A stretch of DNA of 64,000 nucleotides from Bacilli bacterium (lineage in GTDB: Bacteria > Bacillota_I > Bacilli_A > RFN20 > UBA1709), in the NCBI GenBank assembly GCA_050949315.1, contig JBMNFL010000001.1, positions 826,413 through 890,412 of the forward strand, in the 5' to 3' direction. The notes under the pieces were generated by a model. That model was not told the origin of the DNA, did not search any database, and saw nothing but the letters and a program-made list of their open reading frames with translations. Positions within the stretch are counted from its first letter, which is position 1. Each line of letters opens with the position of its first letter. Shown here piece by piece: positions 7,745 to 39,313 of the stretch. Position numbers and translations under genes: made by a program.

Positions 7745-9443
7745 AAAGCTCAACGAGAAGTTAATCAAACGTTTTAAAGGCCAAGTTAGTGCCCATGAAG
7801 AAAAGGGTTGTGTGGTTTTGACTGGTGCTCTTTTAACGTGGAAAGAAGTTATAGAAGCTTGTTACATGGCAGTTGATAAAAAACGCTACATAGGTGTTTT
7901 AAATGATATCGTCTGTATTGAGTGTAAAGAGGTTAAAACGCGTAGTTCTAGCTTAAATGATAAGCTTTTAGATGGCGAAGAAGTTGATGTTCTTGTCATC
8001 GGGGGTGGAATTTCTGGTGCCAGTATTTTGCGTGAGTTAAGTAAATATAAATTAAAACTTTTACTGATCGAAAAAGAAGCTGACGTAGCGATGCAGAGCA
8101 GTGGCCGCAACGATGGAGAAGTACACCCTGGAGTAGACTTAAAACCAGGAAGTAAGAAGCAACATTACGTCCTTTTAGGTAACGCCATGTACGATAACAT
8201 CTGTAAACAATTAGATGTTCCCTTTAGAAGATGCGGTCAATTCGCCCTTTTTACAAAAACGACAACTTTTCCTCTAATTTGGGCATATTCGCATCAAAAA
8301 TGTCGACAAAATTGTCCAACAGGGGTCATTTTGCGTCATCAACTAGCAAAAATGGAGCCAAATTTGACTTCAAGAGCCAAATTTGCTCTCTATAATCCGA
8401 CGGCTGGCGTGGTGTCTCCTTACGTTTTAACCATCGCGTATGCTGAAAATGCCATTCAAAACGGGGCTAGAGTTGTACTTAATTGTCAAGCGCTGAGCAT
8501 GGAATTAGCTGAGGGAAAAATAAAAAGTGTTTTAACTAATCGTGGTCGTATTTATCCTAGGCTTGTTATTAATTGTGCGGGTGTTTTTACTGAGGAAATT
8601 GCCAAGATGGCTAATGATCGTTATTTTTCAATTCACCCAAGAAAAGGTACAATTGCCATCTTAGATAAGAAAGCCAATTTTCAAATTAGAGGAATTTCTT
8701 CTATCCGCCACCTAAATGAACCCAAAAACACTAAAGGTGGGGGTATAATAAGAACAATAGATGATAATGTTCTTGTGGGACCAACGGCTACAGAGACTTA
8801 TTTAAAAGAAGATTTCACAACTGATCAAGAAGCGATTGATAAAATCTTCAAAAAACAAATTCAAACTTCGCCACAACTTAAAAAAAGCGATATTATAACT
8901 TATTTTAGTGGTATTAGAGCCGCTACCTTCGAAGAAGACTTTTATATTGAAAAAGGGCGTAATACAATGAATATTATCCATGTTGCGGGTATTCAATCAC
9001 CAGGTTTAACAACAGCTCCTGCCGTGGCTATTGATGTTGAAAGAATGGCAATAGAACTATTAAGTGAAACTAAAAAAGTATCTAAAAACAAGGACTTTAA
9101 TCCAATTAGACATGGAATACCACGTTTAAAAGAAATGACCGATTTAGATCGTAAAGAGATGATTAGAAAGAATCCGGATTATGGAATTATTGTTTGTCGT
9201 TGTGAAGAAATTAGTAAGGGCGAGATTATTGATGCTCTCAACTCGCCATTATGTGTTCCAACCTTAGATGCCATTAAACGTCGCGTAAGACCGGGGATGG
9301 GAAGATGCCAAGGTAGCTTTTGCTCGCCACTTGTTGCTCAGATTATCGCCGAGCACCAAGGAATTAGTTTAGATCAGGTAAAAAAGAGTGGTTTAGATTC
9401 CAATATTAGCTATGGTCATATCGGAGGAAAGTCCAATGGATAG
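7734..9443 (+). CDS. FAD-dependent oxidoreductase (GlpA/LhgO-like) with C-terminal BFD-like [2Fe-2S] domain
   Basis: Dinucleotide fold VLVIGGGISGASILRELS. The C-terminal CRCEE...C..C cysteine cluster is typical of BFD-like domains. First gene of a conserved three-gene cluster. Confidence 0.75.
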   Translation: MTIEKLNEKLIKRFKGQVSAHEEKGCVVLTGALLTWKEVIEACYMAVDKKRYIGVLNDIVCIECKEVKTRSSSLNDKLLDGEEVDVLVIGGGISGASILRELSKYKLKLLLIEKEADVAMQSSGRNDGEVHPGVDLKPGSKKQHYVLLGNAMYDNICKQLDVPFRRCGQFALFTKTTTFPLIWAYSHQKCRQNCPTGVILRHQLAKMEPNLTSRAKFALYNPTAGVVSPYVLTIAYAENAIQNGARVVLNCQALSMELAEGKIKSVLTNRGRIYPRLVINCAGVFTEEIAKMANDRYFSIHPRKGTIAILDKKANFQIRGISSIRHLNEPKNTKGGGIIRTIDDNVLVGPTATETYLKEDFTTDQEAIDKIFKKQIQTSPQLKKSDIITYFSGIRAATFEEDFYIEKGRNTMNIIHVAGIQSPGLTTAPAVAIDVERMAIELLSETKKVSKNKDFNPIRHGIPRLKEMTDLDRKEMIRKNPDYGIIVCRCEEISKGEIIDALNSPLCVPTLDAIKRRVRPGMGRCQGSFCSPLVAQIIAEHQGISLDQVKKSGLDSNISYGHIGGKSNG

Positions 9444-14177: not shown

Positions 14178-14254
14178 CGGGACGTAGCGCAGCTTGGTAG
14201 CGCACTTCCTTGGGGTGGAAGGGGTCGCGAGTTCAAATCCCGCCGTTCCGACCA
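14178..14254 (+). tRNA. tRNA-Pro (anticodon GGG)
   Basis: Manual cloverleaf fold:
- 7-bp acceptor CGGGACG/CGTTCCG (one G-U);
- D-stem GCGC;
- anticodon stem CTTCC/GGAAG with loop TTGGGGT and G37;
- T-arm GCGAG-TTCAAAT-CCCGC (one A-C mismatch);
- discriminator A and encoded CCA.
Starts 3 nt after the GT2 stop. Confidence 0.75.
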
Positions 14255-20555: not shown

Positions 20556-22193
<1,638 letters not shown>

Positions 22194-24605: not shown

Positions 24606-24682
24606 CGGGGTGTAGCGCAGCTTGGTAGCGCGTTTGGTTCGGGACCAAAAGGCCGCGAGTTCGAATCTCGCCACTCCGACCA
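24606..24682 (+). tRNA. tRNA-Pro (anticodon CGG)
   Basis: Manual fold:
- acceptor CGGGGTG/CACTCCG (one G-U);
- D-arm GCGC-AGCTTGGTA-GCGC;
- anticodon arm TTTGG-TTCGGGA-CCAAA;
- T-arm GCGAG-TTCGAAT-CTCGC;
- encoded CCA.
Paralog of the tRNA at 14178. Confidence 0.8.
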
Positions 24683-27666: not shown

Positions 27667-27756
27667 GCAAACGATAGATCCAAACTGGGCCACGGAAAAC
27701 GATGGGTGCATGACATACAACAAAGTGACACCGACACCAACGGATAGAGTACAATA

Positions 27757-29065
27757 AAGTTCGCAATTTCGAGAAGGTATAGAAAAGCCATTGGGACTCC
27801 TTTAAAATGAATGGTGTCAAGACATTCAAAAAGGAGTTGGTCCCAATGACTCAAGGAAAGAATAACACAGATCTTACGGAATTGCTACTGAAATGTATGG
27901 CGGAGCCCGACCCGATGCTCAGTATGCTGGAATGGCTCTGCGCTCAACTGATGGAGGCGGAGGTTTCCGGCCTTGTGGGGGCGGAAAAGAATGCGCACAA
28001 TCCGTCTCGAAGTGACTACCGCTGCGGATATCGTCCCCGGAGGCTGGATACTCGCGTAGGGACGATGTATCTCATGGTGCCAAAGCTGCGCAGCCATGGA
28101 TATATCCCGTTCTTTGTCACTGAACGCAAACGCAGCGAGGCGGCGCTGGTACAGGTTATTCAGGAGGCATTCGTGCAGGGCGTGTCCACACGGAAGATGG
28201 AAAAGTTGGCTCACAGTCTGGGGATAGAGAACCTCTCCCGCAGTCAGGTCAGTGAGATGACAAAAGGGCTCAATGAACAGGTACAGGAATTTCGCAACCG
28301 TTCTCTGACGGATACTCGTTATCCTGTCATTTGGACGGATGCCCTGTACGAAAAAGTCCGTATGGATGGCCGTGTCGTCAGCATGGCGGTGATGGTTGTC
28401 TGCGGCGTCAACGAGCAAGGGCACAGGGACATTCTCGCCGTGGAGCCGATGCTGGACGAATCCAAAGAGAGCTATTCCCAGTTGTTTCAAAGTCTTTTGG
28501 ATCGCGGCTTGAAAACACCGCTGCTGGTGGTTTCCGATGCGAACAAAGGGCTGATTGCCGCCATCCGAGAAAGTTTTCCCGGCGCATCCTGGCAACGCTG
28601 CAAAGTGCATTTCATGCGAAATATTCTGGCCCATATACCGCAGAAAGAAAAAGAATCCTTTGCGGTCCAACTGAAAGAAATCTGGCTGGCGCCTTCCGTC
28701 CAATTAGCGCGACAGCGCGCAAAACAGTTGTCGGAGCAATATGGGAAGCGGTTTCCCAAAGCAATCGAGCTTCTGGAAGACGGGCTGGAGGACTCACTGG
28801 CTTTCTATGCATTCCCCGAGCTTGATGCCCGTAAAATCTCATCGACCAATATGCTGGAACGGCTGAACAAGGAAATCCGGCGCAGAACCAACGTCGTCGG
28901 GATATTCCCAAACAAAGATTCCTATCTGCGGTTGGTTACAACATATCTCATGGAATACGCTGAAGACTGGTCCGTTTCCAGAGCATATTTGAATCCCAAA
29001 TCGATTCAGACACTTCTGCTAAGCGCAGCTTAATTCATTTCGTGGAGTCCCCAAATTGCGAACTT
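27757..29065 (+). mobile_element. IS256-family insertion sequence (~1.3 kb)
   Basis: 13-bp terminal inverted repeats AAGTTCGCAATTT (27757-27769) / AAATTGCGAACTT (29053-29065). Each end also has a GGGACTCC / GGAGTCCC sub-terminal repeat. A single transposase ORF lies inside. Confidence 0.7.
27846..29033 (+). CDS. IS256-family (mutator-type) transposase
   Basis: Typical IS256 transposase sequence (MTQGKNNTDLTELL...DANKGLIAAI...WQRCKVHFMRN...). ATG 27846 after an AAGGAG RBS. Confidence 0.85.
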   Translation: MTQGKNNTDLTELLLKCMAEPDPMLSMLEWLCAQLMEAEVSGLVGAEKNAHNPSRSDYRCGYRPRRLDTRVGTMYLMVPKLRSHGYIPFFVTERKRSEAALVQVIQEAFVQGVSTRKMEKLAHSLGIENLSRSQVSEMTKGLNEQVQEFRNRSLTDTRYPVIWTDALYEKVRMDGRVVSMAVMVVCGVNEQGHRDILAVEPMLDESKESYSQLFQSLLDRGLKTPLLVVSDANKGLIAAIRESFPGASWQRCKVHFMRNILAHIPQKEKESFAVQLKEIWLAPSVQLARQRAKQLSEQYGKRFPKAIELLEDGLEDSLAFYAFPELDARKISSTNMLERLNKEIRRRTNVVGIFPNKDSYLRLVTTYLMEYAEDWSVSRAYLNPKSIQTLLLSAA

Positions 29066-29097
29066 CTCTTGACATAGCCCACCAACGTTTGCCCATA

Positions 29098-29147
29098 AAT
29101 CGTTTTCTTGATACAGGAATCGTTTTCACATAGGCATAATCGTTTTC
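29098..29147. repeat. Three direct 10-bp repeats AATCGTTTTC at exact 20-bp periodicity, just outside the IS right end
   Basis: Copies at 29098, 29118 and 29138. Confidence 0.6.
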
Positions 29148-29158
29148 TTATACAAAAA

Positions 29159-29215
29159 CCGCTTAAGATCATAGGTGCAGTAACATGCATTCTAATAGTC
29201 TTAAGCGGCTTTTTT
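29159..29215. terminator. Bidirectional terminator-like hairpin (CCGCTTAAG...CTTAAGCGG, 32-nt loop) with T-runs on both strands
   Basis: 9-bp perfect stem followed by CTTTTTTATT. Confidence 0.5.
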
Positions 29216-29319
29216 ATTTATTTTAACCCTGAGCTCATCAGGCAGATTTGAAATACCTTGGAACAAAGTTGTATAATTTCAAACGTTCGTTGAATAAAAC
29301 AACAGTAAGGGTTAGGACA

Positions 29320-29413
29320 CCATCGCCTCCGTTGGCACGATAGCATCAGCTTGATGTCGGGTATGTATTTTTCATTTTTTCCGTTCTCGGGAACAGGTCA
29401 ATAATAGGGTTTG
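29320..29413. repeat. ~90-bp direct repeat, copy A (ends with the iteron CCGTTCTCGGGAACAGGTCAAT)
   Basis: About 88% identical to 30208-30307. It contains one copy of the 22-bp iteron unit. Confidence 0.6.
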
Positions 29414-29594
29414 AGTCTCGCCGCCTCCGTTGTGTTTCCTGCACTACTTTGATACAATGCACCATTTTCTTCTGTCGGCGAGCTTTCGTTAACGAGCAGG
29501 GTATCGTTAACGAGCACGTAGGATGAAAGAGCTGTCGTATCAGAGCACTCCATGTCTGTCCGAAAATTTTAGTTTTTTTCCCATGTTGAGTAAA

Positions 29595-29897
29595 TCACGC
29601 ATCATTATTTATGATTGCCTCTAGCTGAGGTAAGCTCCCACAAAGATCTGGGTCATAGTGTTGGTAAATCAATCTCGTAATCTGGGAAGGTTCTATTCCC
29701 GTTCTTAAAATTTTCAGCATGACAGTGCTGAAATCATCACGGTTCCCACCGTCAATTAAAGCAGCTTCATCTCCCTCAATAATTAGATAGGGATTGCAGT
29801 GAAGACCTCTGTTTTCATCAGAGTAACCGACCCAGTAAACACCCTCGGCAATATCTACCGGTTCTTTTTCTAAAGATTCCATTTTAATTTTCACGGT
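29595..29897 (-). pseudogene. N-terminal fragment (99 codons) of a flavodiiron protein (metallo-beta-lactamase-fold FprA/ROO-like)
   Basis: GTG start with an AGGAGG RBS. VYWVGYSDENRGLHCNPYLIIEGDEAALIDGG is the FDP N-terminal MBL motif. The ORF stops after 99 aa, whereas full-length FDPs are ~400 aa. Confidence 0.55.
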
Positions 29898-29950
29898 TTA
29901 TTCCTCCTTGTTGGCAATATAACTTTTCATATCTTCTATAACTAAAGCAT

Positions 29951-30079
29951 CCAACCTGACCACACAACCTCAACTTTTTCAAAAAACATCTAAATCGACC
30001 ACTCGCGAACCCATGTTATCCAAACTGACCACTCGTCAAACACCGACATCTAAATCGCTCTGTCACGTTCAAAATCATG
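29951..30079. repeat. Two degenerate tandem ~65-bp units (CCAAmCTGACCAC...ACATCTAAATCG...)
   Basis: Unit 1 at 29951-30019 and unit 2 at 30020-30079 share CCAA(C/A)CTGACCAC and ACATCTAAATCG cores. Confidence 0.5.
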
Positions 30080-30207
30080 CCTTTGGACTTGTTCCCACGA
30101 ACCGATATTTTCACAAATTTTACACATTGTATTTTAACTCTCAAACCTCGAAAAGCCCAATATTACTGGACTTTTGACACACTCACTTCTCAACCCTTGA
30201 CATCAAT

Positions 30208-30307
30208 ACCACCGTCTCAACGTGGAACGAGAGCATCAGGTTGATGTCTGGTATGTATTCTTCGTTTTGTCCGTTCTCGGGAACAGGTCAATAGTGGTTT
30301 TTATGGG
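30208..30307. repeat. ~90-bp direct repeat, copy B
   Basis: Aligns with 29320-29413 at an 888-890 bp offset. Confidence 0.6.
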
Positions 30308-30366
30308 TACTCTCTGTTCAAGGGAACAGGTCAATGGTTTTTATCCGTTCGGGGGAACAAGTCGAT
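30271..30366. repeat. Three 22-bp iteron-like direct repeats (CCGTTCTCGGGAACAGGTCAAT / CTGTTCAAGGGAACAGGTCAAT / CCGTTCGGGGGAACAAGTCGAT)
   Basis: Starts at 30271, 30314 and 30345. A fourth copy sits in repeat A at 29381. Confidence 0.6.
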
Positions 30367-30757
30367 ACATGGGGTTTAATTCCTGTCATCTCCGGTGGCA
30401 AAGGTACTATCTATTAATAAAATGCACCGCTCAAATCAAATCGTTATAAGATGCACCCCTTTTGCACACCCTATTTTCAGCCGCCCTGATGTTTGTTATC
30501 CGTTATTCGCAGAATACCTCAATGGTACGCAGTTGAAAATCAATATTTTATAAACTTAGCTCCTGGAACGCCACAAATGCTGCATTTTTCCGGGACTAAT
30601 TTTTCTATATTTCCGCAGACAGGGCAGAGGAAGTAGAAAACTTCTTCTGTATGTCAAAGACTCTCTAATGCATCCTGATAAAGTCCGGCATGAACCTCTT
30701 CCGCTTTCAAAGCAAAGGTAAAGGAGAAAATTCCTACAATAGACTATAACACTTCAG

Positions 30758-33700
30758 TCAAACCTCCTCGCTTTTTTCTATTATTTGAACAAACAGTTCG
30801 GCGATTTGCGGGTCGAACTGTGTTCCTGATCCATTCTTAATAACATCAAGAGCAGCCTGTTTGCGATCCTTTAAGGGAAAATCGCCTCTGTTAAGTACGC
30901 GGTCGTAGGTTTCAGTAACAGCAATGATCCTTGACAACAGAGGAATTTGCTCTCCCTTAAGCCCTCTCGGATATCCCTTTCCATCCCATCTTTCATGATG
31001 GCCATAAACGTATTCTGCCAGGTCGAGTGTGTCATCAAAAAGATTCAAAATTCGGTATCCAACCACAGAATGCTGCTGCATTTTTTCACGCTCATCAGCC
31101 GATAAAGTCTCCTTATTTAGGACAGCTTCATCCAGCACAATTTTACCGATATCGTGTAGATAACCCGCCCTGCTTAATTTGCTGACTTCAGTATCAGGGA
31201 GATGCAGAGCCGTGCCTAATTTTGAGCACAACTCACTTACATCAACCGAGTGCTGTTTTTCTTTTGGATTCCTCGTGTATAAAGTCTCAATAATCGTGCC
31301 AATAATTTCTTTATTGATGGACTTACGATTCATCGTTTTATCCATATACATGGCGTTTTCTGCGTTTGCCATGATCTCATCAAGCAGCTGGTCTGGGCTT
31401 CGTTTCGTATCAAGACCAAGAGCAATACTGCTCTTGATGGCCTTAACGCGGGCGTCGGCAAACCCGGATTTAATCCTGGCAAGAATTTTCTCAGCATTTT
31501 CTTTGGTTGTGTTGGGTAGAAGAATGATGAATTCGTCACCTCCGACGCGAGCGACTACATCATTCTGCCTGCAAACCTGCAGCAGTATTTCAGACGATTT
31601 TTTAATTAGCTCGTCGCCAGCTCTATGTCCAAATATATCATTGGTCATCTTCAAACCATTGATATCAGCAAAGATGACAGATAGCGGAAGATTGTCCGGA
31701 TTGTCAATTTTTGCTCGGTTGTCCTCAAAGCATTTTCTGTTGTGCAGCCCGGCCAAGGTATCGTAACAGTTCAGATACTGGATCTCAGCTTCTTTCTGTT
31801 TTCGTTCGCTTATATCCATAAAAGTTACAACAGCGCCGGTTATTTCACCGTTTTTATTCTGGGGATATGAATAATATTCCACGTCAAAAGAAGTACCGTC
31901 AGCACGCCAGAATACTTCATCCTCTACGTGGGAACCTTCCCCTTTGATAAATGCTTTGAAAATACTGCAGTCATCAATGGGGAAGGGGTTACCATCTCTG
32001 CGGGTGTGATGAATCTGCCGGTGCATATTCTTTCCTAGTAATTCTTCCTGATCACGATATCCCAGCATTTCAATACAGCTTTTATTACAGAAAGTGCAGT
32101 TGCCATTCAAGTCAATGCCGTAAATGGCCTCTGCGGCTGTATCCAATATCAACTGAAGTTCGTCTTTACTCTCCTCCAATTGAAAATTCGCAATATGAAG
32201 CTCCTGGGTACGTTTCTGCACGTTAAACTCCAGGTTTTCTATAAACGATTGCATTTTGTCGGCAACCTTATTAAAGCTGTTTGATATCTGGCCAATTTCG
32301 TCATTTCGGATAATATCAACTCTTTTAGACAGGTTGCCGGAAGATAATTCATCAGATACCTGCAACAGGTTTTTCATTGGCCTTTTGCTTTTCAAAAACT
32401 CGAGCGCGTCTTCTTCATTAAGCGGCTTGCTGAACAGATATCCCTGTATCCTATCACAGTTGTGTTCTTGCAAATACTGTAACTGGCATTCGTGTTCGAC
32501 CCCTTCAGCAATTGTGCAGTGCCCAAGCTTATGTGACATCGAAATAATATCGCTTGTTATTGCTTTACTCAGGTCTGCATCTAACAACTTATCAATAAAA
32601 TACTTGTCAATTTTTAAGCAGTCGACGCTCAGCTCTTTTTCTCTGGCTAGGGAGGAATAACCAGTTCCAAAGTCATCTATAGCTATGTGAAGTCCGGTTT
32701 CCCTCAGTTTCTCGATAATGCTATTAACGGCTTCATAATCGGAGGCAAAGACCGATTCGGTAATCTCAATGCCAATATTCCGGGGATTAACCTGCATCTC
32801 GCTCATTAATTCAAACAGCCTGCTTGTAAAATCAGGTTTTAATAGCTGAATAGCAGAAATATTGATTGAAACGCCGACTTCATCATATCCACTCGCATTA
32901 AGCTTATTAAGGAAATGAAACGCGTTGACAATCACTTTTTCACCAATCGGTATAATGAGCTTTGTCTCTTCGGCAATCGGTATAAATTCAACCGGTGACA
33001 CCAGTCCGTGTTTTTCTGTTTTTAACCGTGCTAGCGCTTCAAACCCACAAACAGCATTTGTCTGTAGCTCAACAATCGGTTGGTATTGCAAAAACAACTC
33101 ATCATTAGTGCTTTCAAGAACTACGCCCGTAAGTGCTTCCCGGATGTCTCTTTCGCGGTTTATCTCAGCCTCCAGTTCCTCATTATAAAAACAAGCCTCA
33201 AAGTCTTTTTGTGAAACAGCAATAGATCTTTCTGACGCAATCAAGAGCTTTCTTAAGAGTAAATCCACATCGATTTCATCAACGTCCTGCTCAATTTCGA
33301 ATATCCCAATCCCGCCGCCTATTCGTTCAGTTGCAAATAAGGCTTCTAATGCTTCTGCTATGATATCGCTAAATTCAACCAGGTCGTTCTTGTCTTTGTA
33401 ATCAACAAGATAGAAGACAAACCGATTTTCATAGGTTTGGAACAGTAAGCGGGTATCGGAGCAATGCTGACTCAGTGTTTCAGCAGCCATTTTTATAAGG
33501 TTCTGTGTATAGTGAAACCCATAATTAGCGGTTAATAACTCAACTGTACTCAAATTGATACTGATGACTGCTCTTTTTAATCCATCCTTTTTCTTGATAT
33601 CATTATTCAGAAGCGCATCCAAATAATCACGATTATACAAGCCTGTCCATTTGTCATGCTCATTTATGTATCTGAGATGGTTCTCCATCTCTTTTCTGTC

Positions 33701-35263
33701 TGAGATATCGAGGATTATTCCTTCCAGCGCTTCAACTTCACCCTCATCATTATATATTCCTTGTCCCATCTCAAGAACCCATTTTCTTTTGCCGCTTGCA
33801 GTGATAATCTCATACTCATATCTAAACGGCTGCCCTTTTTCAAGGATTCGCTTCAATTCGTTCCACAATGCTTCGCGGTATTCAGGGGAAATGAGATCAT
33901 TATACGATAGGTCTCTATTGTTTAACAAGCTTTCGGATTTGTATCCAGTCAGATCATAGCAACCTTTTGAAACGTACTGCATCGTCCAGTCATGATCATA
34001 TTTGCACTTGTAAGCCAAGCCCGGTAGGTGAGACATTAGAATAGATTCTCTCCGTTCGTTCTCCCTCAATGCAAACTCAAAAAGTTTGCGTGGCGTAATG
34101 TCACGGGAGGAGCCTTGAAATCCCACCGCATTACCATTATCATCGCGGATGAAAGAAATACTCAACTCCAGCCAGATAACGGTGCCGTCTGCTTTATAAT
34201 GTTCAACTTCGATCGTCCGCGACCTGTTTTTATCAATTTCGGGATCTTTTTCTTTTTCTAACTCTTCATAAAAAATCGATTGGATTTTATGCAACGTTTG
34301 TGCTGGAAATTTCTCTTCCATCTTCCTATTCATATGCTCTTCGATGGATTCTCCAAGGAGTTTTTCAACAGAGGGACTTACATACGTCGTTTTCAGGGTT
34401 AAATCCATCTGCCAGACAACGTCTGACATATTTTCTGTGATGCTTCGATATTTCTTTTCGCTTTCAATCAGCGCAGCCATAGCGGCTTTTTGGTTGGTAA
34501 TGTCCTGAATAAGACACATATGATTAAGCTTGTTTTCCGCTAAAGGAGCAATAGACGCAACGACCATATATACCCATGCAACCGATCCATCGGGTTTAAC
34601 ATATCGCTTCTCCATTGAATAGCTTTTAATTTCACCGGCCTGCAGTTTATTAAAATTTTCTATATCTTCATCCAGGTCGTCCGGATATGTAATCTTTGCC
34701 CAGCCTAAATTAATGAGCTCTTCTTTTGTTCTGCCTGTAATTTGTTCATATGCAGAGTTTATTTTTATAATATCCTTGTCAGAGTGTTTAGGATCACGGC
34801 TGTGAGAAATTGCTATGCCAATAGGGGCCTCTTCAAAAAGCCTATCAAAGGCAAGAGTGTGTTCGTCAATTTTCTGCGATAGTGCTTGCTGAGCTCGCAT
34901 CAGTGCTACATGAACATTGATCCTGGCTTTCAATGAATCCATATGAAGTGGCTTTCGGATATAGTCTACGGCACCAAGCTTTAAGCCCTTGATTTCATTA
35001 TCCAATTCATCATAATTAGTCAATATTATGGTGCGCAGCTTCCGAAACCGCTCATCCCGATTCAATGATTCGAGAACCTGAAAACCATTCATATTAGGCA
35101 TATTGAGATCGAGTATGAGCAAGTTGATTTCATCATTCTCCGCAAGTACACGCAAAGCCTCTATACCGTCGCAAACAGTCAACACGGTATACTCACTGAG
35201 CATGTTTTTGATGATCAATCTGTCCGACGCCGAGTCGTCAGCTACTAAAATTTTAATTAGCAT
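30758..35263 (-). CDS. Giant multidomain c-di-GMP signalling protein: REC - 3xPAS - degenerate GGDEF - EAL - HAMP-like - PAS - GGDEF - HD-GYP
   Basis: Domain-by-domain:
- N-terminal receiver (ILVADDSASDRLI...LILDLNMPNMNG);
- three PAS segments;
- a GGDEF fold with YENRF in place of GGDEF;
- EAL (QPIVEL...GFEALAR...DDFGTGYSS...QGYLFSKP);
- a linker, then a fourth PAS;
- an intact GGDEF (ARVGGDEFIILL);
- HD-GYP (HDIGKI...HHERWDGKGYP).
ATG 35263 has an AAGGAGG RBS. The listed ORF start 35290 adds 9 unsupported codons. Confidence 0.8.
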   Translation of the reverse strand: MLIKILVADDSASDRLIIKNMLSEYTVLTVCDGIEALRVLAENDEINLLILDLNMPNMNGFQVLESLNRDERFRKLRTIILTNYDELDNEIKGLKLGAVDYIRKPLHMDSLKARINVHVALMRAQQALSQKIDEHTLAFDRLFEEAPIGIAISHSRDPKHSDKDIIKINSAYEQITGRTKEELINLGWAKITYPDDLDEDIENFNKLQAGEIKSYSMEKRYVKPDGSVAWVYMVVASIAPLAENKLNHMCLIQDITNQKAAMAALIESEKKYRSITENMSDVVWQMDLTLKTTYVSPSVEKLLGESIEEHMNRKMEEKFPAQTLHKIQSIFYEELEKEKDPEIDKNRSRTIEVEHYKADGTVIWLELSISFIRDDNGNAVGFQGSSRDITPRKLFEFALRENERRESILMSHLPGLAYKCKYDHDWTMQYVSKGCYDLTGYKSESLLNNRDLSYNDLISPEYREALWNELKRILEKGQPFRYEYEIITASGKRKWVLEMGQGIYNDEGEVEALEGIILDISDRKEMENHLRYINEHDKWTGLYNRDYLDALLNNDIKKKDGLKRAVISINLSTVELLTANYGFHYTQNLIKMAAETLSQHCSDTRLLFQTYENRFVFYLVDYKDKNDLVEFSDIIAEALEALFATERIGGGIGIFEIEQDVDEIDVDLLLRKLLIASERSIAVSQKDFEACFYNEELEAEINRERDIREALTGVVLESTNDELFLQYQPIVELQTNAVCGFEALARLKTEKHGLVSPVEFIPIAEETKLIIPIGEKVIVNAFHFLNKLNASGYDEVGVSINISAIQLLKPDFTSRLFELMSEMQVNPRNIGIEITESVFASDYEAVNSIIEKLRETGLHIAIDDFGTGYSSLAREKELSVDCLKIDKYFIDKLLDADLSKAITSDIISMSHKLGHCTIAEGVEHECQLQYLQEHNCDRIQGYLFSKPLNEEDALEFLKSKRPMKNLLQVSDELSSGNLSKRVDIIRNDEIGQISNSFNKVADKMQSFIENLEFNVQKRTQELHIANFQLEESKDELQLILDTAAEAIYGIDLNGNCTFCNKSCIEMLGYRDQEELLGKNMHRQIHHTRRDGNPFPIDDCSIFKAFIKGEGSHVEDEVFWRADGTSFDVEYYSYPQNKNGEITGAVVTFMDISERKQKEAEIQYLNCYDTLAGLHNRKCFEDNRAKIDNPDNLPLSVIFADINGLKMTNDIFGHRAGDELIKKSSEILLQVCRQNDVVARVGGDEFIILLPNTTKENAEKILARIKSGFADARVKAIKSSIALGLDTKRSPDQLLDEIMANAENAMYMDKTMNRKSINKEIIGTIIETLYTRNPKEKQHSVDVSELCSKLGTALHLPDTEVSKLSRAGYLHDIGKIVLDEAVLNKETLSADEREKMQQHSVVGYRILNLFDDTLDLAEYVYGHHERWDGKGYPRGLKGEQIPLLSRIIAVTETYDRVLNRGDFPLKDRKQAALDVIKNGSGTQFDPQIAELFVQIIEKSEEV

Positions 35264-35312
35264 TATGAATCCTCCTTCTTTAACCCACACCCACTCCAGG
35301 CTTTTTTTGACT

Positions 35313-35876
35313 TTATTTTAGTTCCTCAAGCAGTTTCCCAAGTAATTTAGAAAACCTGTCTTGTAATGGCACTATTTCATCTTCCTTTTCTTCATTAAAA
35401 GCTTTCTGTAATAACGCAGCTACAGCCTGCAGTGATTTAGCACCGATACTTCCGGAACTGCTCTTAACCTTATGTACGATTTGTGTAGCTTCAGTGTATC
35501 TTTTTTCACGTACTGCCGCTTCAAGCTTTTCCAAAGTATCTTGATTCTCGTTGCGGTATTCAATTAGCACCTGATTATACAATTCTTCGTTGCCGCCCAT
35601 ATTTTTAAAGCCTAGCTGCCGGTCAAGGACAGCTGTATCCGGTTCTATATTAGGTTCATTTTCAAGGATAATATCTTTTATGGTTTGAATAAAGTGATCG
35701 GGATTAATGGGCTTACTGATGTAATGAAATATTCCGCTTTGCTCGCACTTGTCCCGAACACCTAAAATCACATCCGCTGTCATTGCTATAATAGGGACTT
35801 GGCTTGAAATCGATCGGATATTCTCCGCCGCTTCATAGCCGTTCATGACAGGCATGTGCAAATCCATCAATATCAA
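35313..35876 (-). CDS. Truncated receiver (REC) domain fused to an Hpt phosphotransfer domain; likely N-terminally disrupted
   Basis: MILMDLHMPVMNG...IIAMTADV is the middle and C-terminal part of a receiver; it lacks the beta1 DD pocket. C-terminal Hpt motif HKVKSSSGSIGA. The REC reading frame is closed by a TGA upstream. Confidence 0.5.
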   Translation of the reverse strand: MILMDLHMPVMNGYEAAENIRSISSQVPIIAMTADVILGVRDKCEQSGIFHYISKPINPDHFIQTIKDIILENEPNIEPDTAVLDRQLGFKNMGGNEELYNQVLIEYRNENQDTLEKLEAAVREKRYTEATQIVHKVKSSSGSIGAKSLQAVAALLQKAFNEEKEDEIVPLQDRFSKLLGKLLEELK

Positions 35877-36061
35877 ATCGATGATGTCACGATGCTTCTG
35901 ATATAGCTCAACAGCTTCCTTTCCGTCGTTGGCAATATGAACCTGTTGACCTCATCGCGCTTCATTCGCATGATACGGTAGATGCCGAAATCAAGGTCAG
36001 ACTGGTCAAACTGAAACATCTCGCGGAGGATGCTCATTAATTTTTTCTGGTTATCAGTCAT
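35873..36061 (-). CDS. Short ORF (62 aa), apparently the N-terminal remnant of a disrupted gene; start overlaps the XRE gene stop (ATGA)
   Basis: MTDNQKKLMSILREMFQFDQSDLDFGIYRIM... runs 40 codons and then into the out-of-frame REC fragment. Confidence 0.35.
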   Translation of the reverse strand: MTDNQKKLMSILREMFQFDQSDLDFGIYRIMRMKRDEVNRFILPTTERKLLSYIRSIVTSSI

Positions 36062-36303
36062 TTTGTGGTACCTTCTTTCCCGCTGCCCGTGGCAGCGGCA
36101 TCATCGGGAATTGTTTCCATGATGTCTGTTATATCGCACTGAAGAACATCGCATATCTTTAACAGAACAGCGGTTGTAACATTCTCGTCTTTTCCGAGCT
36201 TCGCAAGTGAGGACGAGCTGATACCCGCTGCTTGTCGTAGCTCAGTTTTCTTCATGTTTCTGTCAATTAACAACTTCCACAGCTTCTTATAACTCATCTT
36301 CAT
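36058..36303 (-). CDS. XRE-family helix-turn-helix transcriptional regulator
   Basis: HTH_XRE signature (KTELRQAAGISSSSLAKLGKDENVTTAVLLKICDVLQC). Confidence 0.75.
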   Translation of the reverse strand: MKMSYKKLWKLLIDRNMKKTELRQAAGISSSSLAKLGKDENVTTAVLLKICDVLQCDITDIMETIPDDAAATGSGKEGTTK

Positions 36304-37945
36304 TGTCTGTCACCTCTTTATTCCATGATTCGCCGTACAGTTCGCAATTACCATCCGACAATTTCAAAACAGTATTACCCGTCAGAATGCGCTGCGTGTC
36401 TGGTTTATACGCAGCCTGTTTATCAAAGGCGATAAACACCTGTTTTGTACTTTGAACGTATATTTTCATAATGCCGTCGACAGCACCATCGCCGATGTTT
36501 TTCAAAATTAACGAATCGTGCGCTATGGCCGGTAGTGCAGTCAGGTTGAGTATTGCCAAGTCATAGATGACCATGCCTTTGTAATTCGAGCCTGTGCCGG
36601 TATCATCCGGCGTTTCAAACCTGTAACTGTTGTACTCGTTGAATGTGAGGCGCGGCGCTTTCCGCACGTCTGCAAAGAGCGAATCGTTATATTCCTTCAT
36701 TCTATCATTGATAGCACGTTCAATCTCATCAAGGATGCTTTCTATCGCGTGTTTCAACATTTCGTCAGCTTTTTTCTTTGCATCCTGCAGCTCGGTCAAT
36801 GTAAGGTACGCTTCATTCTGTGCTTTCAGCGCATCAATATGACCTTTAATTTCCGAATGCATATCCAAAAATTCTTTGGACAGGTTGCCGACAAAACCGA
36901 GCTGGTTGATTTCTGTCTGCACTGACTGGATTTGTTCCAGCAAAGCAGCAATCTCCAACTCGACCGATTGGCGCTCGCTTTTGAACTGTTCATCGAGTAT
37001 GGTCGCCAGCTTCTGATGGTATTTTTCTACTTCATACAGCTTCCGAATGTTCACATCAGGGAAAAACTCCTGTAAAGCAGATAAATCTGCTTCTGTCGGA
37101 TATAGACCATACGCGAGGCTAATATCCAGGAGGCTTACTCGGCGGCGTTTTGCCTGCAAATCGGTTTCGAGACGCAGCTTACTGCCCTGAAGCTGTGATT
37201 TTAAACGACTCTTTTCAATGTCTGCTTCGTTATGGCCTTCCACCTGTTCATCAGTCAGATTATCAAGCTGAACCTGCAGGCTGTGTATTTGCGCCAGATT
37301 TTCGTCATATTTTGTTTTGCCTCCAACGAGGTCAGGGACAAAGCGATACTTTCGGGCTTCTCGGAAAATCGACAGCCGCTTTTTCTGCTCCTCAAGATTG
37401 CCGTTGAAGGCTTCAATGTCCTTATATCTGTCAAACAGGCGGACAAGAATTTCGATGGATTTTTGCATTCCTTCTCCGGGCAAGCCCTTGAGAGGTTTGC
37501 GCTCATCGGTATTTTCTTTTCCGTATATCCTGAAGAAGCTGCTCATTGTCTCGCGGAAGGATAGCCCTGCGAAATCAATATGGTATTTTTCTTTCAACCA
37601 GTCGGCAAACTGCTGCTTCGTCCATACAACTCCTGTCAGCACATATCCCTCTGAGCATACATGAATATCGGTGGGCGATTCGGTACTGCGGGCAAAGTAG
37701 TACGGCGTTCCATCAAATTCAAATGTAAAGAAGATAGTGTGATTGCCAATGTGCTTCACACCATCACTGACAAGGTACGAGTTGCCACCAAAAGCAAAAT
37801 CAATGGCAAGCATGGCAGAGGATTTTCCGATTGAGTTTTCGCCATCCTCTTTTCCGAGAACGACGTTCAATCCCTCTTTGAAGCGGATTGGAGGTCGTTC
37901 TTTTCCTTTTTCCTTAAAGACCGGCGAGGTGATTTCTATAAGCAT
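36287..37945 (-). CDS. P-loop ATPase with long central coiled coil (ABC/SMC-like; LmuB/ABC-three-component ATPase-like)
   Basis: N-terminal Walker A (GKEDGENSIGKSS) in an SMC/RecF-type head. About 250 aa of heptad-rich coiled coil. C-terminal segment with acidic Walker-B-like hhhhD (MVIYDLAIL) and AHDS. RBS GAAAGGAGAGG. Confidence 0.65.
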   Translation of the reverse strand: MLIEITSPVFKEKGKERPPIRFKEGLNVVLGKEDGENSIGKSSAMLAIDFAFGGNSYLVSDGVKHIGNHTIFFTFEFDGTPYYFARSTESPTDIHVCSEGYVLTGVVWTKQQFADWLKEKYHIDFAGLSFRETMSSFFRIYGKENTDERKPLKGLPGEGMQKSIEILVRLFDRYKDIEAFNGNLEEQKKRLSIFREARKYRFVPDLVGGKTKYDENLAQIHSLQVQLDNLTDEQVEGHNEADIEKSRLKSQLQGSKLRLETDLQAKRRRVSLLDISLAYGLYPTEADLSALQEFFPDVNIRKLYEVEKYHQKLATILDEQFKSERQSVELEIAALLEQIQSVQTEINQLGFVGNLSKEFLDMHSEIKGHIDALKAQNEAYLTLTELQDAKKKADEMLKHAIESILDEIERAINDRMKEYNDSLFADVRKAPRLTFNEYNSYRFETPDDTGTGSNYKGMVIYDLAILNLTALPAIAHDSLILKNIGDGAVDGIMKIYVQSTKQVFIAFDKQAAYKPDTQRILTGNTVLKLSDGNCELYGESWNKEVTDNEDEL

Positions 37946-38112
37946 GAATATACCTCTCCTTTCTCATTGATGTCTATTGCGTTAAGCGCATATAGGCAGT
38001 CCATAACCGACAAAAAATCCGTTGCGTCGGAAAGCGAAGGCTTTATCCGAAGATAAAGGTCTTTCACTGCGATTGGATTATCTTGTACCTCTTTGAGCAC
38101 CGTTGGAATCAT
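37936..38112 (-). CDS. Small protein (58 aa) between the HNH-like and ATPase genes (possible middle component)
   Basis: ATG at 38112 (minus). The stop overlaps the ATPase start. No clear RBS, so the call is tentative. The longer listed 106-aa ORF overlaps the upstream gene. Confidence 0.3.
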   Translation of the reverse strand: MIPTVLKEVQDNPIAVKDLYLRIKPSLSDATDFLSVMDCLYALNAIDINEKGEVYSCL

Positions 38113-38143
38113 CGCCAAGGTGCTGTTTTTATATGAATACAGC

Positions 38144-39313
38144 TTATTCGGTAATTGCATCGAACACCTCACAGCTCTGCACGAAGTACGAAACCACAAT
38201 CTGGCAGAAAATTGCGTCCTGTAGCGTAACACGATGTATTTTATCTGCGATTTCATTGAAGATTTCGAGATGCGGTTTGTTTGCCTTTTTTAGTTTCTTA
38301 TACAATGCGTGAATCTGGTCTTGGATTTCATCGTAGTCAATTTCGCCGCTTTTATCCAGATTTATCATTATTTCTTTTATGCGTATGAAGTATGTGGTGA
38401 CGTAGTTGGTTACCGCATTGTAAAGCACCATGTCCTGAGACGGGCTAAGTTTCTGCTTGACTTCCTTTGGTTCAAAGGAAGCATCAGACAATTCCTTTTC
38501 CCCGAGTTTCCGTATTCTTTTGATTACGCCGACAATGCCCTTTTCCAAAGGCAGGTCATCAAGAAGACGGATGCTTTGTTTATGCGTAGACAACACCGTT
38601 TTTATTTCCTTTAGTTCAGCCATCAACTTCTTGCTGTCATCAAGGAGATATGTGGCATAGCACTGCGGGCACATTGCCATGAGGTTTTCGGGCGTAGTCG
38701 CTTTAGATTTATCTATCAAGCTAACTTCAAATGTATGAATGGCTTTTCCGTTTTTTGAAATAGTTAGCTGCCTCCCGCACCCCGGGAATGGACAGCACCC
38801 ATCTGTTTCTGCAAGTAAATAATCGCCGTACTTTTTCTTCAAATCGGATGCAAGAATCTGTTGCTGCTGTTTCTGGAGTTCATCCTGCGGAATCAGCCCA
38901 GCAGACTCCTGAATAATTTGTTCCAGCCATTCGGTGACTTTTTCTGCAACATTATCTGCATTTATGGTCGGTTCATAACCGACTAAATCCTCTGCAAATA
39001 AAGCCCTTGAAGCGGGGCTTCGCTTGCTTATGCTCCGTGTAAGTATTTTAGGTGTTAGATGATACACGATATTTCCCGCTAAATTCTTGGATAAACCTCG
39101 TTTTACATAGCTGCGAATGGTGTTATCGCTGAGTTTTGCGGAAGGGTCTTTACCCTTTGCCCAGTCAGCCTCAGATACAGTCGTAATCTTTGCCATTAAT
39201 TCGCGGAAAAAATACGGCACATCATCACCGTCGGCTAAATGCTTTTTCATAATTGGGAAAAGTGTTTTGAATTCCACGTCGGCTCGACACTCCTTTACTG
39301 AGATTTGCACCAC
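38144..39313 (-). CDS. HNH-nuclease-motif protein (putative effector of the ATPase-linked system)
   Basis: CCPFPGCGRQL...IHTFEV...ENLMAMCPQCY matches the CxxC...H...N...CxxC(H/Y) HNH zinc-finger layout. The rest is alpha-helical. GTG start is uncertain. Confidence 0.55.
   Translation of the reverse strand: MVQISVKECRADVEFKTLFPIMKKHLADGDDVPYFFRELMAKITTVSEADWAKGKDPSAKLSDNTIRSYVKRGLSKNLAGNIVYHLTPKILTRSISKRSPASRALFAEDLVGYEPTINADNVAEKVTEWLEQIIQESAGLIPQDELQKQQQQILASDLKKKYGDYLLAETDGCCPFPGCGRQLTISKNGKAIHTFEVSLIDKSKATTPENLMAMCPQCYATYLLDDSKKLMAELKEIKTVLSTHKQSIRLLDDLPLEKGIVGVIKRIRKLGEKELSDASFEPKEVKQKLSPSQDMVLYNAVTNYVTTYFIRIKEIMINLDKSGEIDYDEIQDQIHALYKKLKKANKPHLEIFNEIADKIHRVTLQDAIFCQIVVSYFVQSCEVFDAITE

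Follow-up and report, generated by a model that had tools for sequence, protein, structure and literature searches.

Stacked serine-integrase attachment sites, two of them of the rumA-targeting type, probably form the left border of a prophage in a Bacilli bacterium

Phages such as phiC31, Bxb1, A118, TP901-1 and SPbeta integrate by means of large serine recombinases (LSRs). Their attachment (att) sites are imperfect dyads of about 50 bp with exchange at a central dinucleotide, the integrase gene lies near the phage site (attP), integration takes place inside a host gene, and the lysogen is bounded by hybrid junctions. Canonical LSR sites need only about 50 bp, without further conserved or repeat-bearing arms. 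The attP of phage lambda (P1, P2, P'1-P'3), by contrast a substrate of a tyrosine integrase, has three tandem sites in its P' arm and an inverted site in its P arm. In Firmicutes, rumA is a documented serine-integrase target for integrative and conjugative elements (ICEs): in Tn1549/Tn5252-type ICEs and integrative mobilizable elements, and in CTn5 of C. difficile, the 3' end of the gene is exchanged on integration (PMC4701971). Successive elements and remnants between repeated att sites, with defence-gene cargo and some units devoid of a recombinase, are described for the tandem arrays of the staphylococcal cassette chromosome (SCC/SCCmec) that Ccr serine recombinases make (bioRxiv 10.1101/2023.03.17.533233). 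Here we compare with these systems a 1.3-kb non-coding tract (positions 29,098 to 30,370) in a stretch of 64,000 nucleotides from a Bacilli bacterium (GenBank assembly GCA_050949315.1, contig JBMNFL010000001.1, positions 826,413 to 890,412), the whole of which we call the window. A preliminary description, made from the letters alone, had found this tract to be packed with direct repeats and had likened it to an iteron origin or to integrase arm sites.

We consider it probable that the tract is the left border of a temperate phage of ~45 kb that was integrated by LSRs, and that it comprises the attL of this phage, split by an insertion sequence (IS), followed by two orphan att sites of the rumA type (Table 1). 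The resident attL would have a 19-bp core in common with attR, a phage-side arm with three copies of AATCGTTTTC, and an IS256-family element within the core. Next would come copy A (29319-29516), a degenerate attL-type junction with a single 22-bp unit, and then copy B (29949-30471), an intact attP made up of a P arm (holding a 13-codon replacement for the end of rumA and a cargo promoter), a crossover site termed J1, and a P' arm with three units. Read from left to right, the order would thus be copy A with its “type A” right part, a diiron-protein stump, the P arm with its promoter, the rest of the copy B attP, a rubrerythrin remnant, and the cargo. The preliminary description was right that this is not random intergenic DNA, since site-specific recombination sites are stacked here at a prophage border. 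Its four repeat features do not form one architecture, as the first belongs to the resident attL and the other three to orphan att sites of a different phage family.

Copy B is a conserved and mobile module. Scanning one genome per species with GTTCNNGGGAACAGGTCAAT yielded 37 stretches, about 30 of which carry a block of 200-330 bp that is 82-99% identical to the window; their sources are many Bacillota as well as bins under the labels Synergistota, Spirochaetota and others, and they frequently lie at contig ends. Metagenomes added 44 further contigs. The module is also present in phage PV036457 (64-kb genome) and in the IMG/VR contig L052 (L numbers denote retrieved loci), where the order is endolysin, LSR, small ORF, LSR, GGDEF gene, module; between the crossover and 30628, L052 and the window are 100% identical, but over the P arm's first 118 bp their identity is only 86%. 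What flanks the module varies by locus. To its left lies either a conserved arm of ~270 bp or unrelated DNA, the outer part of the P arm being kept at 73-88% in L013, L031, L046, L047, L052, L093, L105 and others, and in other loci the gene directly left of the P arm is always on the minus strand. To its right, homology stops at 30471/30472 in 11 loci, and minus-strand cargo follows whose stop codons abut this end, including Wadjet-like, SIR2-like and helicase genes.

Within the module, 59 unique copies of J1 align without gaps and with the same geometry, an imperfect inverted repeat around a central dinucleotide. Considering that polymorphisms of the block are confounding, strict criteria were used in the census of breakpoints, and recombinant junctions were found at the centre of the site. 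Over 4.3 kb to the right of J1, L098 and L099 agree at 99.8%, and to its left they are unrelated, with the switch at the base before the TG. L089 and L108 are likewise unrelated to the left, their last mismatch lying 10 bp before the TG. For the window and L052, the switch again falls on the base before the TG, their left sides being homologous (~86%, with indels). All three pairs are 100% identical over at least 300 nt right of the J1 centre. Counterparts of J1 occur as attR, in which the P arm is joined to rumA, and as attL-type junctions, in which a displaced rumA tail is joined to the block; an unoccupied attB for J1 was not retrieved.

No recombinases other than LSRs recur near the module. 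The LSR of L052 (522 aa) falls into a clade with the PV036457 integrase and proteins of L017, L046 and L001, and a search of IMG/VR with it returned at least 588 viral contigs with relatives. In 33 of the 79 viral loci fetched, the left half of J1, CCCTTGACATCAATACTACCGTCTCAACGTG, lies 283-3578 bp after the LSR stop codon, frequently at the end of the contig or predicted prophage. Right of the TG, 13 of these loci share GG(G/A)AACATATC(G/C)AC from 11 nt on, their consensus GGAAACATATCGAC beginning 11 nt past the TG. In those loci that were translated, a minus-strand ORF …PVDMFPxTx runs on into the phage DNA as HVETVVLMSRV(E/K).. and a stop codon, and the completed ORFs match the Pfam family tRNA_U5-meth_tr to the last position of the profile. 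Since the left half of J1 follows LSR genes and completes a host ORF of the rumA type, we identify the module, on the strength of these sequence comparisons, as the attP of LSR phages that enter the 3' end of a rumA-type 23S rRNA (uracil-5) methyltransferase gene and restore its last 13 codons. Junctions in which other DNA is followed by the site and the block are thereby attL, and those in which the P arm is followed by the site and other DNA are attR. The gradual, codon-periodic conservation left of J1 arises because the “other DNA” in attL is the displaced tail of the host gene.

The 22-bp unit occurs exactly at 29381 and 30271, with 3 mismatches at 30314, and more weakly at 30345 (77% over 26 nt), while matches were seen in 0 of 100 shuffles; the unit thus closes both long repeats and stands three times in the second, as had been claimed, with the two additional copies degenerate. 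An inverted copy overlooked by the preliminary description lies in the P arm (30086-30107, 91% complementary to the unit at 30342-30363), giving three direct copies in the P' arm and one inverted copy in the P arm. On the minus strand, unit 1 reads ATT GAC CTG TTC CCG AGA ACG, or IDLFPRT, and the attB' half-site of the host encodes VDMFPxT (VDMFPHT); unit 3 is identical at 18 of 22 positions to the genuine attB' of L167. By sequence and by encoded peptide, the units are best described as copies of the attB' half-site, in other words of the stretch of rumA that encodes (V/I)D(M/L)FPxT, and because they copy this half-site, they are most likely bound by integrase DNA-binding domains. They could be either functional accessory sites or relics of earlier integrations. 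The “90-bp” direct repeat, which we recovered as 80 nt (29333-29412 and 30223-30302, 86% identical, 890 bp apart, with similarity reaching to ~29319/30208), is the P' half-site, spacer and unit 1 that copies A and B have in common.

We also entertain, as a speculative and rather unlikely proposal, that the tandem half-site copies are functional “arm” sites of serine integrases, which would recruit extra subunits for directionality, or would let the phage attP mimic a rumA end, so that other rumA-targeting elements land there and the phage arm becomes a platform for capturing cargo. Two unrelated LSR systems share the pattern of three in-phase copies on the P' side, namely the 22-bp units at J1 and AATCGTTTTC at the resident core. 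Cases in its favour are the L080 LSR element at J1, the L036 cassette at J2' (see below), the apramycin-resistance gene apmA beside a module remnant, and the unrelated cargo that flanks near-identical modules.

A second site with the geometry of J1, termed J2', lies 173 bp beyond it, and subfamilies of the module diverge there. In L036 (480-1625), an insert of 1146 bp with two minus-strand genes sits exactly at the central TG of J2' (the equivalent of 30396/30397); one of the two genes looks NUDIX-like by eye. The motif GGGTTyAAATCC, which resembles a tRNA T-arm, is the left half of the J2' dyad, and this resemblance is coincidental: integration into a tRNA gene was considered and rejected, as ARAGORN found no tRNA beside the block in 30 loci. 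At J1 itself, L080 (477-2252) and L100 (1143-2432) carry an LSR ORF that runs in frame across the crossover into the block (…DKSTHVSTW/NESIRLMSG…, the slash marking the crossover; an open frame of 592 codons in L080), and their version of the block has two units. This looks like a rumA-targeting element with the att site inside its own integrase gene that used the phage attP as a secondary target. An ICE inserted in the serine recombinase gene of another element has been reported in C. difficile (PMC12271512), and L080 and L100 show the same at J1. A recombinase dedicated to the module was not supported among its neighbours, as the L080 LSR was found only in L080 and L100.

Copy A is the more decayed of the two rumA-type sites. 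On the minus strand, its left side holds what remains of a displaced methyltransferase tail (..TEAMVS and stop; read by hand from the sequence), and its right part belongs to a different subfamily from that of copy B, being homologous to L014 (77-84%), L035 and L025. In the latter part, TCGTTAACGAGCA occurs twice at a distance of 18 bp (29486-29516), and at the equivalent place in L080 (~2320-2400) TCGTTAAA occurs four times at ~20-bp spacing; such “ATCGTT” arrays, including the three AATCGTTTTC copies at the resident attL, recur right of att cores. The stump between the two copies had been described as 99 N-terminal codons of a flavodiiron protein with an intact ribosome-binding site, which agrees with what we find: it covers only positions 1-65 of 194 of the Pfam ODP profile, matches residues 19-84 of a 253-aa oxygen-binding diiron protein and 47-115 of 410-aa flavodiiron proteins, and thus represents the first third of the diiron metallo-beta-lactamase-fold domain. 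It is decayed cargo between two att copies. On the other side of copy B, the rubrerythrin remnant matches, at 84% identity, the 3' end of a rubredoxin-flavoprotein-rubrerythrin gene (866 aa) in L046; judged by sequence, that gene comes after a Fur/PerR-looking one. Two tandem integrations and a subsequent deletion would yield this order of attL-type junction, cargo remnant and attP.

The phage that now occupies the locus is of siphovirus type and fills the window from 40 to 64 kb, where PHROGs matches include helicase, DNA polymerase, primase, terminase, portal, capsid and tape measure proteins, with a cargo arm at 29-40 kb. It is syntenic with PV036457, which has an arm of like layout. Its far end, obtained via a tail gene (L061), encodes SHOCT_2 and two LSRs of 448 aa and 535 aa. 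It had been proposed to look beyond the window for a Rep or integrase gene; these two LSRs answer to the latter, and no Rep gene was found among the neighbours of the module. The 19-mer GACACCGACACCAACGTTT occurs at window position 27727 and at L061 position 21318, ~45 kb apart, the latter copy lying ~400 bp past the two LSR genes. Local alignment of the two prophage ends around it reaches 56 columns, with similarity on both sides, and the insert from core to core is ~44 kb without the IS. With an identical core at both ends and integrase genes next to one of them, we read the two copies as attL (27727) and attR (L061) of the resident prophage. Its arm would have been inherited from rumA-targeting relatives, and its own integrase module and att site would differ from theirs.

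The ends of the IS were set by comparison with 10 other copies, and its 8-bp target duplication, CACCAACG, is intact (27735-27742 and 29080-29087). At least 164 blocks of the public collection encode a transposase of identical protein sequence, and some metagenome assemblies have several copies on one contig; this points to a recently active element. Because the IS lies inside the attL core, precise excision should be blocked, and the prophage is probably locked in place. The three AATCGTTTTC repeats at 20-bp spacing were found where they had been reported. They are the only copies of this motif in the window (chance expectation 0.45; 3 copies were reached in 1 of 100 shuffles) and their array begins 8 bp past the resident core on the phage side; the first copy has a counterpart equally far from the core on the host side of attR. 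Left of the IS lie a fourth exact 9-mer, ATCGTTTTC, inverted at 27695, and a copy with one mismatch at 27667. Homology of the module with the resident att arms was tested and dismissed, as scores of local alignments fall inside the range of shuffles. A 15/16 match to AAAGGTACTATC[T/G]ATT, inverted, links 30399-30414 with L061 ~21365-21385 on the host side of attR, and is borderline against shuffles.

Several observations weigh against this interpretation. For the resident prophage, no empty attB was found among contigs with the host flank: all 7 such contigs are identical to the window and either have the same insert or end before it, so that the assignment of attL and attR rests on the 19-bp repeat and the gene layout. 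For the rumA-type sites, the cognate LSR clade is missing from both the window and the resident integrase module, the resident LSRs being at most 40% identical to it. Both J1-type sites are therefore orphans here and may well have become inactive in this genome for want of their integrase. Of the 79 loci from genomes, metagenomes and other retrievals that carry the block, 64 have no LSR in the 1-14 kb obtained. The conservation of ~250 bp per arm and the tandem units are unexplained by textbook LSR biology. Finally, units 2 and 3 exceed the spacers in conservation by only a small margin, in a sample that had itself been chosen on this sequence.

With these points in mind, we weighed other explanations of the repeats. 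Those that also invoke proteins bound to the units are operators and a lambda-type attP. If the 22-bp units and AATCGTTTTC were operators of a phage or cargo regulator acting on promoters in the arms, the recombination site would be incidental; each arm does have a promoter-like site (one at 30144-30117, minus strand, the other a conserved TGnTAAAAT/TGATACAAT to the right of J2'), transcription of the cargo genes left of the module always leads away from it, and the centre of the unit is a small palindrome, GTTC-N4-GAAC, with a variable middle. Yet no regulator gene is consistently adjacent among the 157 Pfam families of 119 neighbour clusters, and a match to the integrase target half-site in both sequence and peptide is unexpected of an unrelated operator, which makes this explanation improbable. 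We rate a lambda-type attP, with the three direct and one inverted unit as its arm-type sites, as very improbable, despite distances from the core similar to those in lambda (three tandem sites at 55-150 bp, and on the opposite arm a single inverted site at 116-137 bp) and a core that contains CCACCG...CGTGG, with 6-7 bp in the middle. Junctions fall at the central dinucleotide of what is a 50-bp dyad, the left half of this site lies just downstream of an LSR gene in 33 viral loci, and no tyrosine integrase is among the families common to at least two of the 119 neighbour ORF clusters, a single occurrence being possible. Compared with lambda, the enzyme class is another one, and the repeats resemble a core-type half-site and not a separate arm-type consensus. 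The suggestion of “integrase arm sites” was thus correct in pointing to integrase-related att sites; as the recombinases are serine integrases and not tyrosine integrases with arm-binding domains, it holds as a geometric analogy only.

An iteron-type replication origin of a plasmid, ICE or phage, the other early suggestion, could account for the direct repeats, which are 22 bp and 10 bp long and whose spacings of 43, 31 and 20 bp come close to whole numbers of helical turns. We regard it as highly improbable, since not one of ~79 loci has a Rep or initiator gene beside the module, plasmids gave only 4 weak partial matches among 72,556 records, the units match the attB' half-site, and the module sits at prophage junctions where it completes a host gene. 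To much the same slight degree we credit a MITE-like element bounded by the inverted repeats at 30086-30107 and 30342-30363, whose arms are 91% complementary and 234 nt apart and whose copies are frequently at contig ends: conservation passes beyond both arms, the breakpoints are at J1, J2' and 30471 and not at 22-nt inverted repeats, and there are no target duplications. The related idea of a repeat dispersed through intergenic regions of the genome, carrying the same low probability, is countered by the 64-kb window, which holds only these copies. A non-coding RNA folded into three hairpins, with an end resembling a tRNA, appears barely credible. Each unit can form a short hairpin and GGGTTyAAATCC is T-arm-like, but no Rfam family matched at E-values up to 10, L025, L013 and L028 have an uncompensated break in the CATCA/TGATG stem, and RNAalifold on 20 copies gave weak consensus folds (-12 and -3.5 kcal/mol) that, whichever strand is taken, show virtually no compensatory changes. 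Three further candidates were rejected: a coding block, as the open frame 30222-30449 is broken by 1-nt indels in L035, L049 and L014 (the 3-base periodicity left of J1 is there because the rumA tail lies on the opposite strand); a template/variable repeat pair of a diversity-generating retroelement, as the differences between the 80-nt copies are not adenine-specific; and a sigma-54 promoter (TGGCAC...), as the spacing is wrong.

Table 1. Positions of the att-related features and neighbouring remnants in the window
Feature	Position	Strand	Remarks
Inverted GAAAACGAT	27695-27703	inverted	host-side arm of predicted attL
Left part of 19-bp att core (GACACCGACACCAACG/TTT)	27727-27742	+	host-side arm to its left
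IS256-family insertion sequence in predicted attL core	27743-29079	+	Mutator-type transposase 27807-29033
Rest of att core (TTT) and phage-side arm with AATCGTTTTC x3	29088-29147	+	copies at 29098, 29118, 29138
Inverted repeat, 19-bp arms (AAAAACCGCTTAAGA...TCTTAAGCGGCTTTTTT)	29150-29217		terminator-like on both strands
Promoter-like TTGAAA-18-TATAAT, putative	29248-29277	+	11/12 match to consensus
Copy A crossover site, degenerate attL-type	29319-29358	+	nhmmer match to J1 profile 29331-29364, E 2.5e-8; aligns with copy B
Single 22-bp unit of copy A	29381-29402	+	attB'-like half-site
Right part of copy A (“type A”)	29403-29516	+	candidate J2'-like degenerate stretch, TTTGATACAATGCACC, TCGTTAACGAGCA x2 (29486, 29504)
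Diiron (ODP/flavodiiron) N-terminal stump, 99 aa	29595-29894	-	GTG start, AGGAGG upstream
Outer P arm (“LPa”): 15-nt motif x3 and ACATCTAAATCG x2	29949-30085	+	kept in relatives
Inverted 22-bp unit, P arm	30086-30107	-	kept in phage PV036457
Promoter-like TTGAGA-16-TAAAAT, putative	30117-30144	-	towards cargo gene left of module
Phage-borne last 13 codons and stop of target gene, HVETVVLMSRVEK and stop	30183-30224	-	window copy
J1, 50-bp dyad GACATCAAT-N15-TG-N15-GTTGATGTC	30199-30248	+	crossover TG 30223-30224; predicted attP core
Three direct 22-bp units, P' arm	30271, 30314, 30345 (30271-30366)	+	attB'-like half-sites
J2', GGGTTTAAT-N15-TG-N15-ATTAATAAA (ATTGATAAA in relatives)	30372-30421	+	centre TG 30396-30397
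Module end (ATGCACC x2, AAATCGTTATAAG)	30422-30471	+	sharp right boundary at 30471
Rubrerythrin-type C-terminal pseudogene remnant, in-frame stop (…CPVCGNIEKLVPEKCSICGVPGAKFIKY and stop)	30541-30725	-	cargo debris

The remaining features are of a more local nature. The “two ~65-bp tandem units” reported at 29951-30079 hold in so far as their halves align weakly (score 6, with the 99th percentile of shuffles at 4), while Tandem Repeats Finder reported nothing; the true repeat is the 15-nt ATCyAAmyyGACCAC at 29949, 29988 and 30018, with ACATCTAAATCG at 29986 and 30046. In the palindrome at 29150-29217, Rfam gave only weak hairpin-type noise. The tract does lie between the IS256-family element and a gene for a cyclic di-GMP (c-di-GMP) protein, as had been stated. 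That gene belongs to the minus-strand cargo at 29-40 kb, which consists of the 1510-aa c-di-GMP protein, an RR-Hpt gene, and DUF2326 and CTD11 genes. Within 30758-39313, the 1510-aa protein has response-regulator, PAS, GGDEF, EAL and HD domains, and DUF2326 and CTD11 are of ABC-3C type; this cargo looks like defence or signalling genes. Exact look-ups of the diiron stump and the 1510-aa protein gave no match. GC content forms plateaus of 36% (1-27.5 kb), 42% (29-39.5 kb) and 53% (40-64 kb), which correspond to a host-like region with exopolysaccharide (EPS) genes and tRNA-Pro, to the cargo arm, and to the phage body and IS, respectively, the GC content of the phage being well above that of its apparent host flank. 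The two tRNA-Pro genes of the low-GC region left of the prophage (14178-14254 and 24606-24682, with GGG and CGG anticodons) do not adjoin an att site. The Heliusvirales paper makes no mention of integrases. On the E. faecalis plasmid LR962441.1 (L048), what is left of the P arm, the crossover site and unit 1 (9001-9137) lies 158 bp from the 3' end of apmA, within an ant(6)/sat4/aph(3')/spw/erm(B) cluster. This remnant is also found in NZ_CP042290.1 and LR962847.1, and suggests that apmA derives from such a cargo position in a phage arm.

Compared with the described systems, serine-integrase att sites that target rumA are of a known kind, while the tandem attB'-like repeats in the arms are unexplained and possibly interesting. 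With phiC31, Bxb1, A118, TP901-1 and SPbeta, the module shares the dyad, the exchange at its central dinucleotide, the nearby integrase gene, the hybrid junctions and the target inside a host gene; it differs from them in the ~250 bp conserved on each side and in the three extra attB'-type half-sites of the P' arm. With the rumA-targeting ICEs it has the target and the exchange of its 3' end in common, and the LSR ORF that spans the site in L080 and L100 is as described for those elements. In contrast to them, the module is carried by phages of siphovirus type that have two or three LSR genes, att is not inside the integrase gene but downstream of it, at a distance of 0.3-3.6 kb (12 kb in PV036457), and the phage copy restores the rumA frame (HVETVVLMSRV.. 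and stop). The SCC/SCCmec arrays differ in recombinase clade, target (rlmH) and host range, and the array described here lies inside a phage arm.

Taken as we propose, the tract yields a precise map of a prophage border where automatic annotation leaves “intergenic” sequence. It also defines an attP, with its crossover TG and both arms, and a target at the 3' end of rumA for an LSR clade with at least 588 IMG/VR relatives, which may be of use in integrase toolkits. The same reading explains why near-identical non-coding blocks of 250-500 bp are found between unrelated cargo and defence genes in the genomes of many anaerobes, and beside apmA on enterococcal plasmids. If the tandem half-site copies are functional, they would be, as far as we found in the literature, the first accessory DNA sites for serine integrases.

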